From NCBI GenBank assembly GCA_020722315.1, contig DYLD01000001.1:13296-77295 (forward strand): 64,000 nt of DNA, in the 5' to 3' direction. The notes beneath the pieces were generated by a model that saw only the letters and a program-made list of their open reading frames with translations, was not told where the DNA came from and made no database searches. Below, piece by piece: positions 723 to 40,973 of the stretch; positions within the stretch are counted from its first letter, which is position 1; each line of letters begins with the position of its first letter. The DNA comes from Syntrophus aciditrophicus (lineage in GTDB: Bacteria; Desulfobacterota; Syntrophia; Syntrophales; UBA5619). The position numbers were made by a program, and so were the translations under genes.

Positions 723-1061
723 CTATTCGGGAACATAGACAACCCTTCCATCTTTGAGCTGATAAGCCGTGCCGAGCCTCGTTCCCTCGCCGCTGAGGCG
801 CTTGTCCGTTACCTTTGTCACCTTGATCTCCCTGCCTTTTTTGACGACCATCTCGATCTTGCCGTCGGCTGTCTTTTTGACGATCGTCATCTCCGATTTT
901 GGGTCGAGTAAATCCAGCATGTTGTAGGCCATGAAGAGGGCGATCATCATGCTGACGATGAAGACGACGCTTGCGTCGAAGAGGTTGGCGACGCCGGAGA
1001 TCGGGTCTTCGAGGGGTTCGTCGTAGCGGTCGAAACGCCTGCGTCTCTTAAGAAATCTCAT
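723..1061 (-). CDS. Small single-TM protein of DUF2149 type with ExbD/TolR-like topology
   Basis: 112 aa. It has a basic N-terminus (RFLKRRRRFDR), one TM segment (GVANLFDASVVFIVSMMIALFMAY) containing an Asp, and a beta-rich C-terminal domain. It overlaps the upstream MotA-like gene by 14 nt. Confidence 0.55.
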   Translation of the reverse strand: MRFLKRRRRFDRYDEPLEDPISGVANLFDASVVFIVSMMIALFMAYNMLDLLDPKSEMTIVKKTADGKIEMVVKKGREIKVTKVTDKRLSGEGTRLGTAYQLKDGRVVYVPE

Positions 1062-1641
1062 CGTCCCCGGCCTCCTCGTTCTTCACGCCGCCGCGATGCC
1101 GCCCCTGGGAGCGCAGGGCGAGTTCGGTGTGGTACTCCATCTCGCGGATATCCGCGCGCACCCACTTTTCCTTGACGAGCGCCATCAGGTAGGCGGCGAC
1201 GCTGACGGCAAGTCCCACGACGGTCGTTGTGAAGGCCGTGACCATGCTCGACGCCATTCGGGGCATGTCGCCTTTCGCCAGGGCGGATAGAGCAATGCCC
1301 ATCGGGATCAGCGTTCCCATGAGTCCCAGGGCCGGGCCGGTGCGGATGACGAAGCGGATCCGGTCGAGGGATTTGATCGCGTCCAGTTCCGCTACCTGCA
1401 GCAGCCTTTCGAACGTGATGTCGATGTTGTTGTCCGGCGAGGCAAGCTCATGTTTCAGCGTGTCTTTGTAGGCGGCAAGAACCGACGATTCGCCCCGCCT
1501 GCGTTCCACCCATTCCTGGAGAAATCCGCCCAGAAGAATCAGTATCCAGAAGGTAAGCAGCACCAGCCCTGCCACGACGGGGAAAAACAGCGCCGACGAT
1601 AGAACGTAGAGAAATGTTTCGAGTCCGGGAAGGATATTCAT
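1048..1641 (-). CDS. MotA/TolQ/ExbB-family proton-channel protein (divergent)
   Basis: 197 aa with three TM segments. The motif GPALGLMGTLIPMG...TTTVVGLAVSVAAY resembles the ExbB/TolQ signature. It shares a 4-nt ATGA overlap with the upstream gene. Confidence 0.7.
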   Translation of the reverse strand: MNILPGLETFLYVLSSALFFPVVAGLVLLTFWILILLGGFLQEWVERRRGESSVLAAYKDTLKHELASPDNNIDITFERLLQVAELDAIKSLDRIRFVIRTGPALGLMGTLIPMGIALSALAKGDMPRMASSMVTAFTTTVVGLAVSVAAYLMALVKEKWVRADIREMEYHTELALRSQGRHRGGVKNEEAGDDEIS

Positions 1642-2387
1642 TGCTTATGTCCCTTCAGCCTGATGATGTAGCCCATCGCCAGCGCCGCGAACAAGATCAG
1701 CAGCACCCCTGCCATGTTGGAAGCATCGGCGCTTCCGCCTGTGCCCGTGAAGGAGGCGTACATCGCCCGGCCCTCCTCGATCTTTGCCGGCAGAAACAGC
1801 GAACCGATGAAATAGAGGCCGATTACGACCATCGCCAGCCCCAGCGAGGCGTCGGGATGCGTCGATTTGCCGAATCGGGCGAGCAGCAGAAAAAAAAGCG
1901 ACAGGACGGCGAAAGCCGCCCCCAGCCCGAGCCCGACCAGCGCCGGCGGCATCGCCAGCGCCCCCAGCGCCGTCCACGTCGAAAAGGACATCGCCGACAG
2001 GCAGACGGGGCAGGGGATGATCAGCAGAAGCGATGACTTGAAGGCGCCATCACCGATGGATGCCGGGGTTCCCGGCGCCGCATGATGCCCCCCCCGGAGC
2101 ATGTAAACGCCCCAGACGATCATCCCCGCCGCCATCAGCAGGTGGATATAGGGCCCCTTCTTCAGGATGGGCATGGCCATCTCCATCAGCCTGCCCGCGA
2201 GAAGCGCAATCGCCACGAACAAGAGGACGTACCCCGTAAGCGTCAGAACGATCCCCTTCGTCCCGAACCGCCCGTACCCGAGCCCGAAGCCGACCTTGAC
2301 GGCGAAAATCCCCAGGCTGAAGAGCGTGCCCAGGACCCATAGGATGATGTTCAAATCCACTATCTCTACCCTCCGTGATGTATTCAT
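1638..2387 (-). CDS. Polytopic membrane protein (DUF2162-like predicted transporter) with an intramembrane CPVC motif
   Basis: 249 aa, about 7-8 hydrophobic segments. It has IIPCPVCL in a TM helix and a GGHH loop. Confidence 0.5.
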   Translation of the reverse strand: MNTSRRVEIVDLNIILWVLGTLFSLGIFAVKVGFGLGYGRFGTKGIVLTLTGYVLLFVAIALLAGRLMEMAMPILKKGPYIHLLMAAGMIVWGVYMLRGGHHAAPGTPASIGDGAFKSSLLLIIPCPVCLSAMSFSTWTALGALAMPPALVGLGLGAAFAVLSLFFLLLARFGKSTHPDASLGLAMVVIGLYFIGSLFLPAKIEEGRAMYASFTGTGGSADASNMAGVLLILFAALAMGYIIRLKGHKQ

Positions 2388-2589: not shown

Positions 2590-4809
2590 TCAGTAACGCA
2601 GCGTCAACTCCAGAAACCACGAGCGACCCGGCGCCAAAGAGTAAGAGAAATACTCCCGGTCGAGGATATTCGCAACCGAAAACGACGCGGATGCCCACGA
2701 AGTGACCTGGTATGATACCTTCGCGTCCATCGTGAAAAACTGGTCGTACGCGCCGTACACCCCGCTTGCGGTGTCGGTATTGTCGTCAGTGTTGTAGCGT
2801 TTGTCCATGTACCGTCCCGTGAGCGACGCGGAAAGCGGGCCTTTTCGCAGCTCCCCTCCCGCATTGAACATGGTGCGCGGCAGGTCGGTCATCTCCTTGC
2901 CGACGGAGGCGGGGGCGGCGCTGTTTTCGAGGATTTCGGAGTCGGTCCAGGTGAAATTGGCGAAGAGCCTCAGCCATTTGTCGAAGCTCTGCTCCGCCTC
3001 CAGCTCGACGCCGCGGCTTTTCCCCCGTCCCGCGTTGATCTTCTCCTTTGTCGTCGCGGTGAGCGTTCGCGTGTAGATCATGTCCGAAATCTCGTTTTCA
3101 AAATAGCCGGCCGCGATCCGCGCCCCTTTCCAGAGTTTCCGGTCAACGCCGACCCCCCACGAGACGGCCGTCTCCGGGGTCAAGTCGGGGTTGCTGAGGT
3201 ATGTTGTTCCCCCGGAGGTGGTCCAGGTGCGGTAAAGATCGTGGAGATTCGGCGAACGGAAAGAGCGTCCCAGCGAGGCGCGCAGCGTGGTCTTCGCGAA
3301 CGGGGCGTAAACGAGGGCCGCCTTCGGGCTGAACGAGGACTGCTTGCGGCTGTCGTAGGTTTTTGGATAGCCGACCGTTCCCGCCTGGTTCACGTAGCCG
3401 TCGAACGTCTCCCACCAGTCCTGCCTTGCGCCTATCCAGGCGGTAAGCTTGTCGAAAATCTGTATCTCGTCCTGAAAAAACAGGGCGTAGTTCCGGTCTT
3501 TCCCCTTTGCCTGATAGGTCAGGTTTGTCGCCGATCCCTCGTCCGTCCAGTTGGTCAGACTGGTTTCCTGCGAGTCGGACCATCCGGTCTTGTATGACCC
3601 GCCGATGGTCGCAAGCTGGCTTTTGAAAAGGGGAAAGGTTGCCTGCATATCGGCGCTCCAACTCGCCGTTGGGGTGTCCGACAGCTTGCCTGGGCCGCCG
3701 GTTCGGGTTGCCGTCGCGCTTGTGGGGGTGACATACCAGCGCTTTTGCTGATCGACGTAGCCCAGCGTGATCTTGACCGCAGCCTGCTGAAACCATTCGG
3801 TTTCCAGTCCAAGACGGTACAGATTGCGGGCGGCCCCTCCGGCCCCTTTCAGGAAGGATCCTTCTTTGACCGTTGAGTACGTCCAGACCTCGGCTCCCGC
3901 GGCGTTCCGGAGATACGTCTCGGGAGCGCCGTTTTCGTAATCGTGCGTCGCCCTCTGAAACTGGAGATCGGCTTTTGTGGCATCGGAAAAATCGTACCGC
4001 GCCTTGAAGGCGATGTTGTCATTTTTCCACGCGTCGTTGCCTCTGTTGCCGATCAGGTAGCGTTTCGCCCCGGTGGTGGATGTCGTCTCGGACCAGCCGG
4101 TCAGCCCCGCCGTGGGCTTTTTCGTCTGGATGTTCAGGTTGGATATGTTGCCGTTTGTGCTTTTTTCATCATAACTGATGAAAAGACGGAGCTTTTCTCC
4201 GATTTTGTCGCCGCCCGCCGCATACAGGGAAACGAGGTCGTTCTGCGCGTCGCCGCGACTCCAGGCCGTTCCATAGCCGGTTTTGATGATCGCTTCCCGT
4301 TTGTCGGGCATCCTTGTTATGATGTTCACCACCCCGCCCATCGCATTTCCGCCGTACAGGCTGGAAAACGGACCCTTGACGACCTCGATTTTCGCCACGT
4401 CCTCGACGGCGATGCCGCTGGAATCGAACGAACCGGAATAGGGGCTGTTCAGGGATATCCCGTCGAGCAGGATCAGCGTCCGGCCCTGGCCGGGAACCCC
4501 GCCGACCGTCAGATACGACATCGTGTCGCGCAGACGCGCCCGGCCTGCGATAACACCGGGGAGCAGATTCAATGTCTGGTCAACACTGAATATCTGTCGG
4601 TTGGCGATCTCCTTTTGCGTGACGACGCCGACGCTGCCCGGCACCGTCTCCAGGGTTTTTTCGGTTCTCGTCGCGGTGACGATGATTTCATCCATGCGGG
4701 CGGGCGCCTCTTGCGCCCTTAACGGTGAGGCAAGAGACAGCAGCAGAACGAGAAGATTAAAACCGGACCGCAACGGCAATTGATTGAAGATATGGTTGTT
4801 TTTATTCAT
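2590..4809 (-). CDS. TonB-dependent outer-membrane receptor
   Basis: The track ORF is 2590-4944. I trimmed the start to the ATG at 4807-4809 (MNKNNHIF..., RBS TAAGGAG), which is followed by a signal peptide. It has the plug motif DEIIVTATRTEKTLETVPGSVGVV and a C-terminal ...LELTLRY aromatic end. Confidence 0.85.
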   Translation of the reverse strand: MNKNNHIFNQLPLRSGFNLLVLLLSLASPLRAQEAPARMDEIIVTATRTEKTLETVPGSVGVVTQKEIANRQIFSVDQTLNLLPGVIAGRARLRDTMSYLTVGGVPGQGRTLILLDGISLNSPYSGSFDSSGIAVEDVAKIEVVKGPFSSLYGGNAMGGVVNIITRMPDKREAIIKTGYGTAWSRGDAQNDLVSLYAAGGDKIGEKLRLFISYDEKSTNGNISNLNIQTKKPTAGLTGWSETTSTTGAKRYLIGNRGNDAWKNDNIAFKARYDFSDATKADLQFQRATHDYENGAPETYLRNAAGAEVWTYSTVKEGSFLKGAGGAARNLYRLGLETEWFQQAAVKITLGYVDQQKRWYVTPTSATATRTGGPGKLSDTPTASWSADMQATFPLFKSQLATIGGSYKTGWSDSQETSLTNWTDEGSATNLTYQAKGKDRNYALFFQDEIQIFDKLTAWIGARQDWWETFDGYVNQAGTVGYPKTYDSRKQSSFSPKAALVYAPFAKTTLRASLGRSFRSPNLHDLYRTWTTSGGTTYLSNPDLTPETAVSWGVGVDRKLWKGARIAAGYFENEISDMIYTRTLTATTKEKINAGRGKSRGVELEAEQSFDKWLRLFANFTWTDSEILENSAAPASVGKEMTDLPRTMFNAGGELRKGPLSASLTGRYMDKRYNTDDNTDTASGVYGAYDQFFTMDAKVSYQVTSWASASFSVANILDREYFSYSLAPGRSWFLELTLRY

Positions 4810-4956
4810 GTTGCTCCTTATTTGGGATTTTTGCGCACCGTCCGCGCTGCTTTCGGAAGTCGATCCTGGATAAACCGTGAAGCTCTTCCCCTGTGGCAAT
4901 GTTGTTTTGGATCGTCTTGCATGCCCGTTTCCCCCGCCGCTCACCGGCGCAGGCCT

Positions 4957-5946
4957 CTACATCGCGATATGGCTGTCGCGGGCGACGTCCCGTATATGCT
5001 GAATCAGGATGCTGGAAATTTCATGGTTCACGCCCAATCCCTCAAGCACGGGAATGACCTCGATTCCCCGTGCCTGGAAAACCGATTTCCATGAATCTTT
5101 CTCGTCCCCGGCCATATCGTTTGTGGCGTGGTCGCCTGCAACAATCATGAAAGGCTTCAACAGAACTTTTTTGATTCCGTATCTCTCCAGTTCAGCGACG
5201 ACGCCGTCAAGATCAGGAAATCCTTCCACGGTGCCCACGCAGATCGGCGTTGATGGATAGAGCCTTCGCATTGTCTCCTGAAATTCCGCATAGACGCCTG
5301 TGGAGAGATGTTCGTTTCCGTGTCCCATATAGACCAGGGCGGCGCTGTTCTTCGCGGCAAGTTCCACATCGGACCGCACCGCCTTTGCCGCCGTTTCCAG
5401 ATCCTTGCGGTACGGATATTTTTTCCCTTTTTCACCCAGCAGGGGCCTGCCGAGCGCCACTTTTCGGAAGGGCCTGAACGCTGGTTTGATCGTTTCGATG
5501 GAATCCAGCGCGTGGACGAGAGCCTTGAGATCAAGGTACTCCTCTCCCTCCATAACATGGTTCGATTGCACGATGATTGTGTTGTATCCGTCATCCTGCA
5601 GGTCTGCAAGCGTGGCCAGGGGGGCCTTGACCTCCAGTATTTCCCTGGAGATGCCCTTGTTTTCGGCAAGAAACCGCTTATCGTTTTGCCGTTCATGCCA
5701 TATTTTTCTGATAATGTTGGATGTGAACGCCAGTTTTACCTTCACGCCGGGAAAGGCGGACTGGACATTCTTTTGAATATCGAGCAGCGATCGCAGAGCA
5801 GAAGGGTAGCTGGTCCCGAACTGGGCAAGAACGATCGCCCTGCCGTCGTTTTTCTGATCCATTGCAAAAACGTCGCCTGTAAAGAAGAACCATGCGGACA
5901 TCGCGGATAACACAATGATCCATGCCTTTTTCAGAAATTCTTTCAT
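4957..5946 (-). CDS. cbiK: Sirohydrochlorin cobaltochelatase CbiK paralogue with signal peptide (exported, CbiK(P)-like)
   Basis: It is collinear with, and clearly similar by eye to, the second CbiK at 11699-12607 (IVLAQFGTSYP..., FTSNIIRKIW, VQSNHVMEGEEY, GHGNEH). The start MKEFLKKAWIIVLSAMSAWFFFTGDVFA follows the RBS GGGAGG. An alternative upstream ATG at 6021 also has an AGGAGG RBS. Confidence 0.8.
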   Translation of the reverse strand: MKEFLKKAWIIVLSAMSAWFFFTGDVFAMDQKNDGRAIVLAQFGTSYPSALRSLLDIQKNVQSAFPGVKVKLAFTSNIIRKIWHERQNDKRFLAENKGISREILEVKAPLATLADLQDDGYNTIIVQSNHVMEGEEYLDLKALVHALDSIETIKPAFRPFRKVALGRPLLGEKGKKYPYRKDLETAAKAVRSDVELAAKNSAALVYMGHGNEHLSTGVYAEFQETMRRLYPSTPICVGTVEGFPDLDGVVAELERYGIKKVLLKPFMIVAGDHATNDMAGDEKDSWKSVFQARGIEVIPVLEGLGVNHEISSILIQHIRDVARDSHIAM

Positions 5947-6044
5947 TTTTTCCTCCCTCGAGATTTTTTGTTTGACCAGGGGGGAGCAGTTCCTTTTGTC
6001 AACAGCGAATTCCGCTTCCATGGAACCTTTTCCTCCTGGATTGT

Positions 6045-6210
6045 CTCAACCTGGACAGGCTTTCCGGCTTCGGGCTTATGCCTACTTGCCCGCCTTCCCG
6101 CCATCTTTTATCGACGGCAGTGGCTTATATTCGGGCGTTCGTTCCCTTCACGGCTGCGGGGCAGCGGGAGCTTTTCACTCCTCTTTCCTGACTTCCGGTT
6201 GATGACAGAT
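6045..6210 (-). promoter_or_regulatory. Cobalamin riboswitch (proximal copy of a tandem pair)
   Basis: The minus strand reads ...GGAGTGAAAAGCTCCCGCTGCCCCGCAGCCGTGAAGGGAACG...GCCACTGCC...GGCGGGAAGGCGG...GAAGCCGGAAAGCCTGTCC (B12 box). It is followed by AGGAGG and the cbiK(P) start region. Confidence 0.85.
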
Positions 6211-6363
6211 TCATTGTTTCCGAGACTGTGAACATTAAGCTTTGCTTTATTGCCTTCTTTGCGGACGCGATTTCAGCATGCTCCGTCAGATAGGACTTTC
6301 TTCACATCGCCTCCTTTGTTTATGTGCGAATAGCGAATGCAACAACGCCTGCCGTTGAGCGTC

Positions 6364-6400
6364 AAAAAAAATCCTCGAACCCAATGTATCAGGTCCGAGG
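6364..6400 (-). terminator. Intrinsic terminator, the likely expression platform of the distal riboswitch
   Basis: The minus strand reads CCUCGGACC-UGAUACAUU-GGUUCGAGG followed by AUUUUUUUU. Confidence 0.7.
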
Positions 6401-6469
6401 ATGCCGTTTTTCACCCGTAACAAGTTTATCGATCGGCTTCCGTCCACGAAGCCCAATCCCATATAACAT

Positions 6470-6650
6470 ATCAAGAAGGTCTTCCGGCTTCCGGATCAGC
6501 TTACTTACCGCGCCTTCCCATTCCTTCCAAACGGAACAGTGACGTCACTGCGGCTTTCATCCCCGGTTACGGCGGCGGGCCCGCGACGGATTCGCACCGT
6601 CTTCCCTTTTACGGCCATAAGGCCTCTCGATTGTTGTGGATCATTACCAC
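6470..6650 (-). promoter_or_regulatory. Cobalamin riboswitch (distal copy of a tandem pair)
   Basis: The minus strand reads GTAAAAGGGAAGACGGTGCGAATCCGTCGCGGGCCCGCCGCCGTAACCGGGGA...GTCACTG...ATGGGAAGGCGCGG...GGAAGCCGGAAGACC. It starts about 16 nt after the cbiH stop. Confidence 0.85.
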
Positions 6651-6665
6651 CCTTGATTTCCACTG

Positions 6666-7448
6666 TCAAGATTTTTTTATTGCGTAGCCTCTGGGGGTGA
6701 TGAGCCATTTCCCCGAAATCCGGGAGGTGCTGTTGCCGACGATCACGACGCTTCGCATTGTGATCGGCAGGTCGCAAAAACTCTCGAGATCGGAGATGAC
6801 GATATCCTCTTCCGGTGTTCCGACCGCCGTTCCGACACCGACGGGAGTGGTTCCGGGCCGGTGAGTCCGGAATATCTCCGCGGCCTCTTCGAGCTGGCGG
6901 GTGCGCTTCTGCGAGCGAGGGTTGTAGATCGCAACGACCAGATCCGCCGCCGCAACGGCCTCGAGACGGGCCCGGATCGTCGGCCACGGCGTCATCAGGT
7001 CGCTCAGACTGAGCGTCGCGAAATCGCACATAAGAGGAGCCCCGAGGCCGGCCGCGAGTGCGTTGGCGGCGGAAACACCAGGCACAATCTCCACCGGCAC
7101 GTTCGAACCGTTTGCCTCCGCAAGCTCCAGAACCAAACCGGCCATCCCATAAATCCCCGGATCACCGGAGGAAACCAGGGCCACCGTTTCTCCGGCCGCG
7201 GCCTGCGCCAGCGCAGTCCGGCATCTTTCAATCTCCCTGGTCATCCCCGTGGAGATCAGTTCCTTTCCGCCGGTGATGTCCCGGATCAACTCAAGGTAGC
7301 GCGTGTATCCGACGACAACCGTGCTTTGCGCGATTGCTTCCTCCGCGCGGCGCGTCCTGTCTAACGCCCCTCCGGGGCCGATTCCGACCACGAAAATTTT
7401 TCCCTGGCCAGGGAAACCGTTATTCCGCCTACGATCTTCTTTCGACAA
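6666..7448 (-). CDS. cbiH: Cobalt-factor III / precorrin-3B C17-methyltransferase
   Basis: Contains KIFVVGIGPGGALDRTRRAEEAI..VVVGYTRYLELI...SSGDPGIYGMAG. The annotated start is a TTG that overlaps cbiG by 88 nt, so the start is uncertain. Confidence 0.8.
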   Translation of the reverse strand: MSKEDRRRNNGFPGQGKIFVVGIGPGGALDRTRRAEEAIAQSTVVVGYTRYLELIRDITGGKELISTGMTREIERCRTALAQAAAGETVALVSSGDPGIYGMAGLVLELAEANGSNVPVEIVPGVSAANALAAGLGAPLMCDFATLSLSDLMTPWPTIRARLEAVAAADLVVAIYNPRSQKRTRQLEEAAEIFRTHRPGTTPVGVGTAVGTPEEDIVISDLESFCDLPITMRSVVIVGNSTSRISGKWLITPRGYAIKKS

Positions 7449-11698: not shown

Positions 11699-12607
11699 CT
11701 ACAGCTCGATGCGGTTGTCCCGCGCGACGTCCTTTATATGCTGAACGAATATCCTTCCGATCGCAGGATTTTCACCCAGCCCGCGGCTAACCGGGATAAA
11801 CGTAATCCCGTTCGCCTGGAAGATCGTCTTCCAGGAATCCTCTTCATCACCGGCCATATCGTTTCTGGCATGCTCCCCCGCGACGATCATCAAAGGTTTT
11901 ACCACCACCTTGCGTATCTTGTCCCTGAGGAGCTTTGTAACAACACGCTCAACGGACGGAAACCCCTCAACGCATCCGATATAAACAGGCGTATCCGGGT
12001 ACATCTTGCGTAACGATTCCTGAAATTCCATATAGATGCCGGTGGAGAGATAGGCGTTTCCGTGTCCCATATAAACGAGCGCCGCATGATGCTCTTTGGC
12101 CATATCCAGATCTGGCCGCAGCGCCTCCGCGGCGACGCGAAGATCATGATGATAAGGATATTCCTTTCCCTTTTTCCCCAGAAGGGGCCGTCCCAGAACT
12201 ATTTTCCGGAAGGGCTTGTGCCGGGGATTGATTGTGTTTATCGAATCGAGCCCGTCAACGCAGGATTTGAGATCGAGATATTCCTCCCCTTCAAAGATGT
12301 GGGTGGACTGGACAACGATCGTCTTGAAACCTTTATCCTGCAGGTCGGCAAGCGTTGCAAGGGGGGCCTTGACATCGAGAATTTCATCGGGGATATCCCT
12401 GTTTTCTTTGAGAAATCCCGCATCGTCACGCCTGCCGCGCCAGATTTTTCGAATTATGTCCGAGGTAAAGGCGATGCGGATCTTGACGCCAGGGAAGGCA
12501 GCGGCGATTTGTCTCTGAATGCCCGTCAGGGCGCCAAGCGCCGCGGGATAGCTCGTGCCGAACTGGGCAAGAACGATTGCAATCTTTTCTTCTTTGTTTT
12601 CCATCAT
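11699..12607 (-). CDS. cbiK: Sirohydrochlorin cobaltochelatase, cytoplasmic paralogue
   Basis: Start trimmed to MMENKEEKIAIVLAQFGTSYP. There is no signal peptide. It is a paralogue of 4957-5946. Confidence 0.8.
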   Translation of the reverse strand: MMENKEEKIAIVLAQFGTSYPAALGALTGIQRQIAAAFPGVKIRIAFTSDIIRKIWRGRRDDAGFLKENRDIPDEILDVKAPLATLADLQDKGFKTIVVQSTHIFEGEEYLDLKSCVDGLDSINTINPRHKPFRKIVLGRPLLGKKGKEYPYHHDLRVAAEALRPDLDMAKEHHAALVYMGHGNAYLSTGIYMEFQESLRKMYPDTPVYIGCVEGFPSVERVVTKLLRDKIRKVVVKPLMIVAGEHARNDMAGDEEDSWKTIFQANGITFIPVSRGLGENPAIGRIFVQHIKDVARDNRIEL

Positions 12608-12659
12608 AAATCCCGACTTTCCTCTGACGTAGGCTCCACGCCTGATCCTCACATCGGCC

Positions 12660-17017: not shown

Positions 17018-17169
17018 ACGCTCCAGATTCAGTAACTTTTATTGACACGAGAAAATCCAAACAAAAAATCCCCGGCCATATCAAACGTATGACCGGGGAT
17101 TAAACGTTTTTATAATCCGGATTAACCCAACACCTTCGGCCTTCTTTACCGTCGAAGATAAAGCCGAGC

Positions 17170-17365
17170 TGATTCTGGCAGGTCTCCTGGCTTGCAGTTC
17201 ATTCCTCCTCCCTCGCCTTCCCATCGTAACGACAGTGGCCGGCATCTCGGAACCCGGTACTTGCAGTATCGGCATGAGCTTTCCGAGTCCGTAGAGGGAA
17301 TCGTCGCTGCTTACAGTGGCGGGTCCGCTCCCGATTCTTACGGGATTCCCTATTATACCGCCCGA
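17170..17365 (-). promoter_or_regulatory. Cobalamin riboswitch upstream of tonB-exbBD-cbi
   Basis: The minus strand reads AATAGGGAATCCCGTAAGAATCGGGAGCGGACCCGCCACTGTAAGC...GCCACTGTCG...ATGGGAAGGCG...GCAAGCCAGGAGACCTGCC (canonical B12 box). Confidence 0.9.
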
Positions 17366-17598
17366 AGGGGCGGCACCAGAACAGCATGACTTGTAAAAGA
17401 ACCTGTATTTTTCCCAACAACCGTTTTGTGAAATCGGTAACATGGCTTTCCTTTTTCTGTCAAGTGATATTTGCATCGTTACTTTCCCGCTCTTTTCAAG
17501 ATGCGGGGATACTGAAGCCACCACCGGAACTGATTGGAAAAGATTCGTCTCAGCCGTCAATCCGTCCTTCCGGCAAAAAACGAGCTCCTCCGTCAGGA

Positions 17599-38380: not shown

Positions 38381-38689
38381 TGCCTGAATATGAATCTATA
38401 TTTGCTCTCATTTCCGGAACAAACCTCTTTCCTCGTCGGACGCAGTGTACAAAAAGAAAATGACCCTGTTATTAACAGTCTGTGAATTTTCGATGAAATT
38501 AGAAAAAGGATGATTTCTTCTCGGGAATAGTGTTCGATCAGCACTTTACGCTGTTCGTCCACAAACCGCCTTTCTAACCGATGATAATAGCCCCTTTGTT
38601 TCCCGCCTGTTCGCCTATTCATTCGTAGCCGGCGAAATTTTATTTCTGCTTGACAGGAACCGGAATTTTTTATAACGAAAAATCGTTTA

Positions 38690-38850
38690 TAAGATCATGG
38701 TGGATCAGAGGAAGAGGGGTGTGATTCCCCCGCTGCCCCGCAGCCGTGAAGGGAACGAAAGCCTAAAAATATCCACTCCTGAGATAGGTCAGGGGGAAGG
38801 AAGGCAAGTAGGGGGCCCGAAGCCGGAAGACCGATCCGCCGGGGTGATTC
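38690..38850 (+). promoter_or_regulatory. Cobalamin riboswitch upstream of the btuCD-like genes
   Basis: Reads GAGGAAGAGGGGTGTGATTCCCCCGCTGCCCCGCAGCCGTGAAGGGAACG...CCACTCC...GGGGGAAGG...GAAGCCGGAAGACC. It is followed by GGGAGG and the ATG at 38861. Confidence 0.85.
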
Positions 38851-38860
38851 TCGTGGGAGG

Positions 38861-39904: not shown

Positions 39905-40735
39905 ATGGAAATTCTAAAGATCGAGGGCGTCAGTTTCCGGTATGACGCCGAATGGATTTTAAAGGATATCAGTCTCACGATCGGAAGGGGCGAGCTGTGG
40001 GGGATTTTAGGGCCGAACGGCTCCGGAAAGACGACGCTGCTGAATCTGATCGACGGGATCATCTCGCCGCAGAAGGGCGCGATAAAGATCGAAGGAATCG
40101 CCGTCGGGAAGATCCAAAGAAGGAATCTCGCGAAGCTGATCGCCGTCGTTCCGCAGGAAACCGCGTGGATCTTCCCCCTGACCGTCGAAGAGGTCGTCCT
40201 GATGGGTCGGACGCCCCACCTCGGCCGATGCGAGTTCGAATCGAAGCAGGATTTCGATGTCGCCCGGTCGGCCATGGAGGCAACCGACGTGCTCGGGTTT
40301 TCATCGCGCCTTATCCAGTCGTTGAGTGGCGGGGAGAGGCAGAGGGTTCTGATCGCCCGCGCGCTTGCCCAGCAGCCGAAGATGCTTCTTCTCGACGAAC
40401 CCACTTCATCGCTGGATATAGCCCACCAGATACGGATTTTTGAACTCCTTCGCCGGTTGAGCGAAGAATCGGGGCTTACCGTCCTGGCTGCCACGCATGA
40501 TATGAACCTGGCCTCACTGTACTGCAACAGGATCGCCCTGTTGCACAAAGGAGATTTTTATTCAAACGGGACGCCTGAGGAGGCACTGACACAAAAGAGC
40601 ATACGAGATGTTTACGGGGTCGACACCGTTGTCGACCGTCATCCATTAACCGGTCTGCCGAGGATTTCACTCCTCGGCGGCCATTCGCCCAAACGAGGAA
40701 GCCGGTGGAAATCCGGCGCTGCCCCGCATCTGTAA
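39905..40735 (+). CDS. ABC transporter ATP-binding protein (BtuD/FepC type)
   Basis: Contains GPNGSGKTTLL and LSGGERQRVLIARAL. The last ~20 codons overlap the next riboswitch. Confidence 0.85.
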   Translation: MEILKIEGVSFRYDAEWILKDISLTIGRGELWGILGPNGSGKTTLLNLIDGIISPQKGAIKIEGIAVGKIQRRNLAKLIAVVPQETAWIFPLTVEEVVLMGRTPHLGRCEFESKQDFDVARSAMEATDVLGFSSRLIQSLSGGERQRVLIARALAQQPKMLLLDEPTSSLDIAHQIRIFELLRRLSEESGLTVLAATHDMNLASLYCNRIALLHKGDFYSNGTPEEALTQKSIRDVYGVDTVVDRHPLTGLPRISLLGGHSPKRGSRWKSGAAPHL

Positions 40736-40832
40736 GCGTAACGAACACCGCACGATGCCACTGGTTTCTTTCAGAAACCGGGAAGGCGCGGCAAGTAGGG
40801 AGACGCAAGCCAGAATATTCGCCCGGCGGATG
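40672..40832 (+). promoter_or_regulatory. Cobalamin riboswitch upstream of the btuB-like receptor
   Basis: Reads GAGGAAGCCGGTGGAAATCCGGCGCTGCCCCGCATCTGTAAGCG...GCCACTGG...CCGGGAAGGCGCGG...GCAAGCCAGAATATTCGCC. The B12 box is degenerate. Confidence 0.75.
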
Positions 40833-40973
40833 AAACACAACTGCTTTTCGAGAGGGAAAGGAGGCTGTATGAAGGAATCGGAAAAGAAAACGCCATCCTA
40901 ATGAGTCGATGTGATTGAAGGAGCAAAAGCAGGAATGACTTACAGACCGCAAACTCACAGGAGGGAGTGAAAG

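Follow-up and report, generated by a model that had tools for sequence, protein, structure and literature searches.

Two cobalamin riboswitches in series, predicted to stop transcription and then to block translation, precede an exported CbiK and uptake operon in Syntrophus aciditrophicus

Doublets of adenosylcobalamin (AdoCbl) riboswitches are known: a survey counted 26 of them and filed them as pseudo-cooperative (PMC9481103; first noted in its ref. 25). The same survey describes bi-mechanism tandems, namely SAM-II/SAM-V and some SAM-II/SAM-II pairs for S-adenosylmethionine (SAM), in which the first switch is followed by an intrinsic terminator and the second regulates whether the ribosome-binding site (RBS) is accessible. 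The benefit proposed for these tandems is that mRNA synthesis is stopped and existing mRNA is silenced (PMC9481103). In Oleidesulfovibrio alaskensis G20, a single cobalamin riboswitch is located 5′ of a periplasmic cbiK, cbiKP (PMC11124144). Further, a kissing loop between L5 and L13 is an established coupling device of cobalamin riboswitches (PMC9600662, its refs 71, 72). Here we analyzed a 64,000-nucleotide (nt) stretch of DNA from Syntrophus aciditrophicus (assembly GCA_020722315.1, contig DYLD01000001.1, positions 13,296 to 77,295; hereafter the window, numbered from its first letter), in which two cobalamin aptamers lie on the minus strand before an operon that encodes an exported CbiK and proteins for uptake across the outer membrane. 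We consider it probable that this leader is a self-contained two-stage device for the CbiK/uptake operon, with a transcription stop first and a translation block second.

The whole window was scanned with cmscan against Rfam 15. The cobalamin family RF00174 (gathering score 31.5 bits) gave five matches in the 64 kb, two of them in the leader. The distal aptamer (6457-6645, minus strand) scored 99.3 bits (E = 1.3e-23) and the proximal aptamer (minus strand) 58.4 bits (E = 6.7e-12), and both cover model positions 1-189. The original prediction, made from the letters alone, had claimed two complete cobalamin aptamers at this place, and the scan bears this out with two matches above the gathering score rather than one. 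Both switches belong to RF00174 and they are of different subtypes. The distal aptamer is of the full type, with a P2-L2 hairpin and a P6 extension. The proximal aptamer is of a compact type in which model positions 22-44, the P2-L2 region, are replaced by unaligned nucleotides; its core is present (P3-P6, a GCCACUG extension and a B12-box-like AGCCGGAAAGCCUG), with P5 formed by GCUG/CAGC and with L5 CCCCG at 6161-6157. Because this aptamer is compact and the pairing of AACCGGA (6200-6194) with UCCAGGUU (6055-6048) is the most likely P1, we place it at 6048-6200, and the bounds predicted earlier (6045-6210) are preferred over the Rfam span (6037-6239), in which the 5′ end is a forced extension. 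No other Rfam family was matched above threshold in 5900-6460. A sub-threshold NsiR1 match is the terminator described below, and a match to the long non-coding RNA KCNQ1OT1_1 on the opposite strand (5930-6026; 9.2 bits vs. a gathering score of 70) was treated as chance.

By Rfam coordinates the aptamers are 217 nt apart, and the distance to the compact P1 is 256 nt. Tandem riboswitches have been defined as lying in the same transcript, with no open reading frame (ORF) in between and a gap of at most about 300 nt (PMC9481103). The pair of the window shares one strand, its gap is within 300 nt and no gene intervenes. The only ORFs between the aptamers are a non-conserved 10-codon ORF and a 62-amino acid (aa) ORF (6286-6474, minus strand). 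The latter lacks a Shine-Dalgarno (SD) sequence and runs across both the aptamer and the terminator, and was disregarded. A full P13 hairpin and a terminator separate the aptamers, so that the pair departs from the glycine-type scheme of two aptamers with one shared expression platform.

An intrinsic terminator follows the distal aptamer (6363-6402, minus strand), as had been predicted. In the terminator scan it consists of a 14-bp stem (6402-6371) and a T8 run (6370-6363); it folds on its own at −19.7 kcal/mol, and the region has a fold z-score of −3.7. Before it, the ViennaRNA folds show a P13-like hairpin, GAUUGG.CUUC/GAAGCCGAUC (6431-6458, minus strand), whose loop GUGGACG (6447-6441) is the candidate L13. 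A duplex between 6458-6436 and the 5′ arm of the terminator has −13.6 kcal/mol and cannot coexist with P13, whose 5′ half is therefore a plausible antiterminator in these models, and a ligand-stabilised P13 would favour termination. The GUGG loop also occurs in Trichlorobacter-type distal units, and a GUGG-CCGC complementarity with L5 is present both there and in the distal unit of the window; by analogy with the known kissing loops, we infer that L5 and L13 may interact in the distal unit.

Each half of this leader has relatives elsewhere. We surveyed 80 loci of CbiK relatives (comparison loci collected for the analysis are labelled L001, L084 and so on), about 75 of which have one aptamer. 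In L001 and L003, a promoter is followed by a full aptamer, a P13 hairpin, a terminator, about 100 nt and then the RBS and cbiK. In L084 and L085, whose CbiK homologs are the closest (70-71% identical), a compact aptamer without P2-L2 is followed directly by the SD sequence. The window contains these two solutions in series. Further, the sole aptamers of L084 and L085 are the nearest relatives of the proximal aptamer (73-74% identity).

Metagenome contigs were then scanned with the 23-nt core CCCGCAGCCGTRAAGGGAACGAA, which gave at least 120 loci. The counts of metagenomic loci here and below are among the matches listed; downstream counts refer to 111 unique compact aptamers with at least 150 nt downstream, and the count of tandems to the 89 for which the upstream sequence is 650 nt or longer. 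A full-type aptamer lies 132-261 nt 5′ of the compact aptamer on the same strand in 10 of the 89 loci, and the order is always full then compact. In all 10 tandems a terminator follows aptamer 1, as in the window, and an SD element with a start codon stands directly after aptamer 2. The T-run starts 90 nt past the distal aptamer in the window and 90-107 nt past it in the 10 tandems. No terminator was found after aptamer 2 in these 10 tandems, nor by the terminator scan after the proximal aptamer of the window; the finder does detect terminators in L058 and L016. The scores are asymmetric in the same way as those of the window (99 and 58 bits), at 100-124 bits for the first aptamer and 55-77 bits for the second, all above the gathering score. 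The 10 loci encode TonB-dependent receptors, a Phenol_MetA_deg-type porin and DUF2162 transporters, and one of the receptors is annotated as Trichlorobacter sp. These families are shared with cbiK operons, the receptor and DUF2162 in the window and the porin in L084 and L085. The two-stage layout is kept across paralogous leaders in a Geobacteraceae-like clade.

The distal aptamers of the 10 tandems are 75-97% identical to each other (most pairs at least 80%) and 57-71% identical to that of the window. Because the latter stands outside this Trichlorobacter-type clade, the window is an instance of this design in its own right. Identity was also used to look for orthologs of the distal aptamer; the best value of 0.72 is within the background (mean 0.63, 95th percentile 0.76) and we make no claim of orthology. 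Two other loci from Desulfobacterota metagenome-assembled genomes (MAGs), L058 (5290-5456 and 5608-5786) and L016 (3615-3819 and 4069-4257), carry cobalamin tandems on cbiK operons with a terminator after each aptamer, the classic pseudo-cooperative layout.

A sigma-70-type promoter is predicted in front of the distal aptamer (6640-6669, minus strand). The consensus scan gave a −35 TTGACA (6669-6664), an 18-nt spacer and a −10 AATGAT (6645-6640), with 10 of 12 matches. The TTGACA overlaps the stop codon TGA (6668-6666, minus strand) of the CbiH-like gene cbiH, the end of the upstream cbi operon, and lies 24 nt 5′ of position 1 of the Rfam model. Among the related loci collected, TTGAC occurs within 90 nt 5′ of 76 of 96 full-type aptamers (79%, vs. 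a background of 9%), and its positions peak sharply at −18 to −30 before these aptamers, where the box of the window is also found. The leaders of L001, L003, L016 and L058 have the same promoter geometry as the window, and a TTGAC-type box was present in every homologous leader examined, metagenomic tandems included, whatever gene was upstream. Since the TTGACA stands in the usual position before the distal aptamer, a separate transcription unit most likely begins with the pair.

The original prediction had instead placed the pair inside a longer transcription unit, in which it would gate read-through from the cbi operon. Such read-through from cbiH may occur, as nothing terminates it, yet it is not required. 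The strict version of this idea, in which the leader has no promoter of its own and the proximal riboswitch acts on an AGGAGG/ATG at 6021, appears unlikely to us. In its favour, only about 20 nt separate the cbiH stop from the distal aptamer, the −10 hexamer of the predicted promoter is weak and gene callers use ATG 6021. Further, the end of an ABC ATPase ORF lies within another aptamer of the window (40658-40841), which has no promoter-like site, and in-operon riboswitches may therefore exist in this genome. These points have to be set against a TTGACA at the modal promoter distance, a TTGAC-type promoter in all homologous leaders examined despite unrelated upstream contexts, and the evidence on the cbiK start given below.

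In the spacer between the units (6360-6205), the consensus scan, which covers sigma-70-type promoters, found neither a promoter-like site nor TTGAC. The proximal aptamer would thus depend on read-through of the distal terminator, which would make the pair a true tandem. If an unrecognised promoter in 6360-6205, for example one of a non-sigma-70 type, drove the proximal riboswitch and cbiK, the two units would be independent, and the distal riboswitch with its terminator would end the cbi transcript or produce a short RNA acting in trans or as a ligand sponge. Some relatives lend this idea colour: a TTGACA is found in the spacer of L145, and L016 has TTAAGA-16-TATAAT just before aptamer 2, which may be a second promoter. 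We nevertheless regard it as very improbable for the window, in which the spacer has no such site, and the spacers of the 10 metagenomic tandems go down to 132-177 nt, mostly occupied by platform and terminator.

The same spacer was predicted to hold a 10-codon micro-ORF with a strong RBS. Its GTG (6305) and TGA (6273) exist as letters, but the frame is not conserved; only the GGAGGYGA element, the supposed RBS, is. This anti-16S-like element, GGAGGCGA (6307-6314, minus strand), belongs to the motif RGGAGGYGA, the perfect complement of the 3′ tail of 16S rRNA. RGGAGGYGA was found 5′ of 20 of 114 compact aptamers, vs. 0.36 ± 0.57 in shuffles, usually 40-60 nt before P1 and in the conserved form aaaGGAGGUGA. 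Of these 20, 17 are metagenomic, and the others are the window, L084 (about 2895) and L085 (two copies, at about 2400 and 2490); the strain L081 has the consensus GGAGGTGA (consensus T) where the window reads GGAGGCGA. A start codon at 4-10 nt spacing follows in 5 of the 20 leaders, which is the chance level (about 29% expected per locus). The ORFs after the element have 2-10 codons only, with no start or ORF conserved. The micro-ORF GTG 6305-TGA 6273 and an ATG-TGA start-stop (6307-6302) were both rejected on these counts, and we flag the sequence as a conserved anti-16S-like leader element.

The start of cbiK had to be revised. Gene callers put it at ATG 6021 in public assemblies (354 aa, 4957-6021), and the original prediction also took the AGGAGG/ATG abutting the proximal aptamer as the cbiK start. 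Most of 120 listed homologs are 324-330 aa long, and the 329-aa form from ATG 5946 aligns with them end to end and has a canonical signal peptide, MKEFLKKAWIIVLSAMSAWFFFTGDVFA, at its N-terminus. A 24-nt block at this start, TCTCGAGGGAGGAAAAAATGAAAG (5963-5940), is identical at 24 of 24 nt in L085, where the CbiK protein is about 70% identical; the L085 copy precedes a porin gene, itself in front of cbiK. Because of the homolog lengths, the signal peptide and the conserved SD block, we assign the true cbiK start to ATG 5946, not ATG 6021, with the SD sequence within the conserved UCUCGAGGGAGG element. The annotation of cbiK is thereby corrected from 354 aa to 329 aa.

The AGGAGG (6037-6032) and ATG (6021-6019) are buried in an inserted hairpin of 64 nt, predicted between P1 and the SD element (5976-6039, minus strand; base CCAGG 6039-6035/CCUGG 5980-5976), where the probability of being unpaired is about 0.2-0.35. 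The hairpin was present in every fold run, minimum-free-energy and centroid, in apo-like and holo-like models. The corresponding position of L085 (2756-2800) is occupied by a hairpin of unrelated sequence. As ATG 6021 lies within a non-conserved, lineage-specific and paired hairpin, it is not the regulated start, and this speaks further against the reading in which the pair has no promoter and acts on that codon. Among 106 metagenomic loci, about 14 (L089, L144, L181 and L205 are examples) likewise have a hairpin of unrelated sequence between P1 and the SD element, which suggests that the linker from P1 to the SD element tolerates or uses a structured spacer.

The proximal expression platform, UCUC-CGAGGG-AGGAA (5944-5963, minus strand), was delimited by identity with L085 and by CGNGGG enrichment. 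It contains CGAGGG (5960-5955), the SD sequence GGGAGG (5957-5952) and the ATG (5946-5944). CGNGGG was found within 40 nt of the aptamer end in 92 of the 111 compact aptamers, vs. 3.5 ± 1.8 in shuffles, and within 150 nt in 106. The platform consensus is WUYCY-CGMGGG-AGGAA with a start codon 5-10 nt later; the SD element stands 0-25 nt after the aptamer in most relatives, and conservation is strongest on the SD element itself. With no terminator and a conserved SD element, the proximal switch most likely acts on translation, as originally predicted, although not via AGGAGG/ATG 6021. L5 CCCCG is complementary to CG(N)GGG in the compact SD type, in which the variable N fits a bulge, and L5 CCCG is complementary to CGGG in several terminator-type leaders. 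The complementarity of L5 and L13 is consistent within each class, a statement that holds at class level only, L5 being fixed by the search pattern. From this anatomy and the known behaviour of the family, we infer that the ligand would sequester the SD sequence of cbiK.

Control at the proximal aptamer might also be exerted by Rho-dependent termination or mRNA decay, with the C-rich and poorly structured stretch 5990-5961 serving as a rut-like site. Rho-coupled riboswitches are established for other classes, the untranslated leader is long, a C-rich tract is present at 5986-5979 and our models showed no occlusion of the SD sequence. However, an SD element 0-25 nt past the aptamer leaves most relatives no room for a rut site, and the strongest conservation falls on that element. 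We give this explanation very little credence and keep translation as the favoured level of control.

It could further be argued that only the distal aptamer regulates, and that the proximal one is a decaying relic, left by a rearrangement in which the porin gene (that of L084 and L085) was lost and a second riboswitch gained. Its lower score of 58 bits, imperfect P1, 64-nt insertion and lack of modelled SD switching would suit a relic. Against this, 55-77 bits are normal for the compact subtype, the core and SD element are intact, with the SD block matching L085 at every position, and hairpin-insert variants are found elsewhere, as described above. Compared with GGCUGGA/UCCAGACC of L085, P1 of the window has two compensatory changes in the same register, from G-C and G-C to A-U and A-U. 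The maintenance of the two-stage layout across the paralogous Geobacteraceae-like leaders points in the same direction, and we hold decay of the proximal aptamer to be improbable.

We propose the following mechanism for the leader of about 720 nt (6669-5944, minus strand), in which two cobalamin checkpoints would act in series on the exported CbiK and the outer-membrane uptake operon. Transcription would start from the sigma-70 promoter overlapping the cbiH stop. When corrinoid binds the full aptamer, P13 would be favoured, probably through the L5-L13 kissing loop, the terminator at 6402-6363 would form and the transcript would be aborted; without ligand, the 5′ half of P13 would pair with the 5′ arm of the terminator and RNA polymerase would read on. 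On read-through transcripts, the compact aptamer would control the SD sequence of ATG 5946, which lies in the pyrimidine-rich/CGAGGG/AGG element. Ligand would most likely sequester this SD sequence, with L5 CCCCG pairing with CG(A)GGG and a small anti-SD/SD hairpin being stabilised, and the inserted 64-nt hairpin may hold P1 and the SD element near each other. The net result would be a bi-mechanism tandem for one ligand, in which mRNA synthesis is cut and existing mRNA is then silenced, with a steeper response to the B12 dose.

Several observations weigh against this proposal. The −10 hexamer AATGAT is weak. In the distal unit, the P13-like stem is short (UCUC/GAGG), and the minimum-free-energy structure already contains P13 and the terminator when no aptamer constraint is set. 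In the proximal aptamer P1 is imperfect, and only one of the tandems scores lower. Thermodynamic models showed no ligand-dependent change at the real SD sequence, which has a probability of being unpaired of about 0.55-0.66 in all of them. The register of the anti-SD/SD hairpin is not fixed, as controls with a slid register pair to about the same degree and true covariation is scarce, and the search pattern fixes L5 in the relatives. Equilibrium folding in apo and holo models reproduced the switch at neither platform; both switches would therefore rest on kinetic or tertiary effects.

The fixed pairing of a full with a compact aptamer, always in this order, may reflect more than redundancy. 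It is seen in the Syntrophobacter-like MAG of the window and, with distal sequences that are unrelated, in a Trichlorobacter/Geobacteraceae-like clade. In a more speculative version, which we rate as doubtful, the two subtypes differ in corrinoid selectivity or affinity and the leader is a two-input or two-threshold device with the conserved anti-16S-like GGAGGUGA element 5′ of the compact aptamer as a third functional part. If so, it would discriminate complete cobamide from cobinamide or base-off forms, or different upper ligands, in the service of corrinoid salvage and uptake genes, and the GGAGGUGA element could be, for example, a standby ribosome or pause site.

The cbi operon 5′ of the leader, also on the minus strand, encodes CbiD, four TP_methylase proteins, CbiG and the CbiH-like protein. 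The first gene controlled by the leader is that for the exported CbiK (4957-5946, minus strand; 329 aa with signal peptide), followed by genes for a TonB-dependent receptor (2590-4944), a DUF2162 protein (1638-2387), an ExbB-like protein (1048-1641) and a DUF2149 protein (723-1061), all on the minus strand and assigned by Pfam. The closest CbiK in species-representative genomes is that of an uncultured Syntrophobacter sp. (63% identity), followed by those of other Thermodesulfobacteriota MAGs, and the closest homologs in a large protein collection are 68-72% identical. MAG GCA_975419235.1 and JGI metagenome 3300000227 both carry this tandem layout, and over ~820 nt their copies differ by 2 single-nucleotide polymorphisms (SNPs). 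Because two independent assemblies agree to within 2 SNPs, the arrangement is real and not an assembly artefact. The three assemblies are 99% identical and their comparison was uninformative for covariation. Two paralogs of cbiK are found in the window: the one within the cbi operon (11699-12652) encodes a cytoplasmic protein of 317 aa, and the other encodes the exported CbiK. The DUF2162/ExbB-like/DUF2149 trio forms the 3′ end of the riboswitch-controlled operon (723-2387, minus strand). In L135 and L150, a two-stage cobalamin tandem lies 5′ of DUF2162 with a short unannotated ORF in between, which points to a role of the DUF2162 transporter set in corrinoid or cobalt uptake.

The three other cobalamin aptamers of the window have different surroundings. 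That at 40658-40841 (plus strand, 97 bits) shares about 78 nt with the 3′ end of the ORF for the ABC-transporter ATPase (39905-40735), with no promoter-like site or terminator nearby, and is followed by CGAGAGGGAAAGGAGG, a 10-codon ORF (40870-40902) and a TonB-dependent receptor gene (40974). By this position it is a candidate for a truly intra-operonic riboswitch of the kind originally proposed for the pair at 6.4 kb. A compact aptamer at 38685-38853 (plus strand) is of the same subtype as the proximal one, shares a 31-nt identical core with it and has the SD element CUCGUGGGAGG before a FecCD permease gene. The called ATG of this gene (38861) directly adjoins the SD sequence; in view of GGGAGGAAGATCTTG in the homologous leaders from metagenomes, an in-frame TTG two codons later may be the real start. 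A TonB gene and the cbi operon come after the aptamer at 17160-17395, which has a TTGACA promoter at about 17463 and a terminator at about 17100-17063.

These results give comparative support to terminator-then-RBS tandems of cobalamin riboswitches, a design described only for SAM in the survey (PMC9481103), and suggest that such tandems act on genes for outer-membrane corrinoid/cobalt uptake in anaerobic Thermodesulfobacteriota and Geobacteraceae. The SD element WUYCY-CGMGGG-AGGAA of the compact subtype could be used to annotate translational cobalamin switches that score low in Rfam, and the two-stage leader offers a natural model from which a sharper B12 sensor could be built. How riboswitch logic is understood in general does not change.

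As originally predicted, same-ligand B12 tandems are uncommon, with 26 AdoCbl doublets in the survey (PMC9481103). In the literature searched, we found no description of a cobalamin tandem with a terminator and then an RBS, or of a full aptamer paired with a compact one; some of the 26 doublets may qualify. The AdoCbl doublets resemble the window in having two complete RF00174-type switches in one 5′ leader, with no gene between them, with platforms of their own and with a steeper response expected. They were reported without platform detail (PMC9481103), whereas in the window the platforms differ, a terminator and an SD sequence, and the subtypes stand in a fixed order. The SAM bi-mechanism tandems share with the window one ligand and the order of terminator first and RBS second, the RBS control in the window being the predicted one; they differ in their ligand and aptamer folds, and both aptamers of the window belong to one Rfam family. 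The thiamine pyrophosphate tandems of Bacillus anthracis and the cobalamin tandems of L058 and L016 are likewise serial switches for one ligand, but they have two terminators, and the window has one after the first aptamer only. The cbiKP leader of O. alaskensis G20 has the same regulated gene family and aptamer family, whereas the window stacks two aptamers. Like the proximal unit, the translational cobalamin switches with an L5-L13 kissing loop (Escherichia coli btuB, and env8; PMC9600662, its refs 71, 72) lack a terminator and have their SD sequence at or in a small hairpin 3′ of P1; their G-rich loop has its complement in a C-rich L5, an interaction that would be analogous in the window; the proximal unit differs from them in its compact subtype without P2-L2 and in the 64-nt hairpin between P1 and the SD sequence. 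The tandem of the window is thus a rare arrangement of kinds that are already documented, the AdoCbl doublets and the bi-mechanism tandems.

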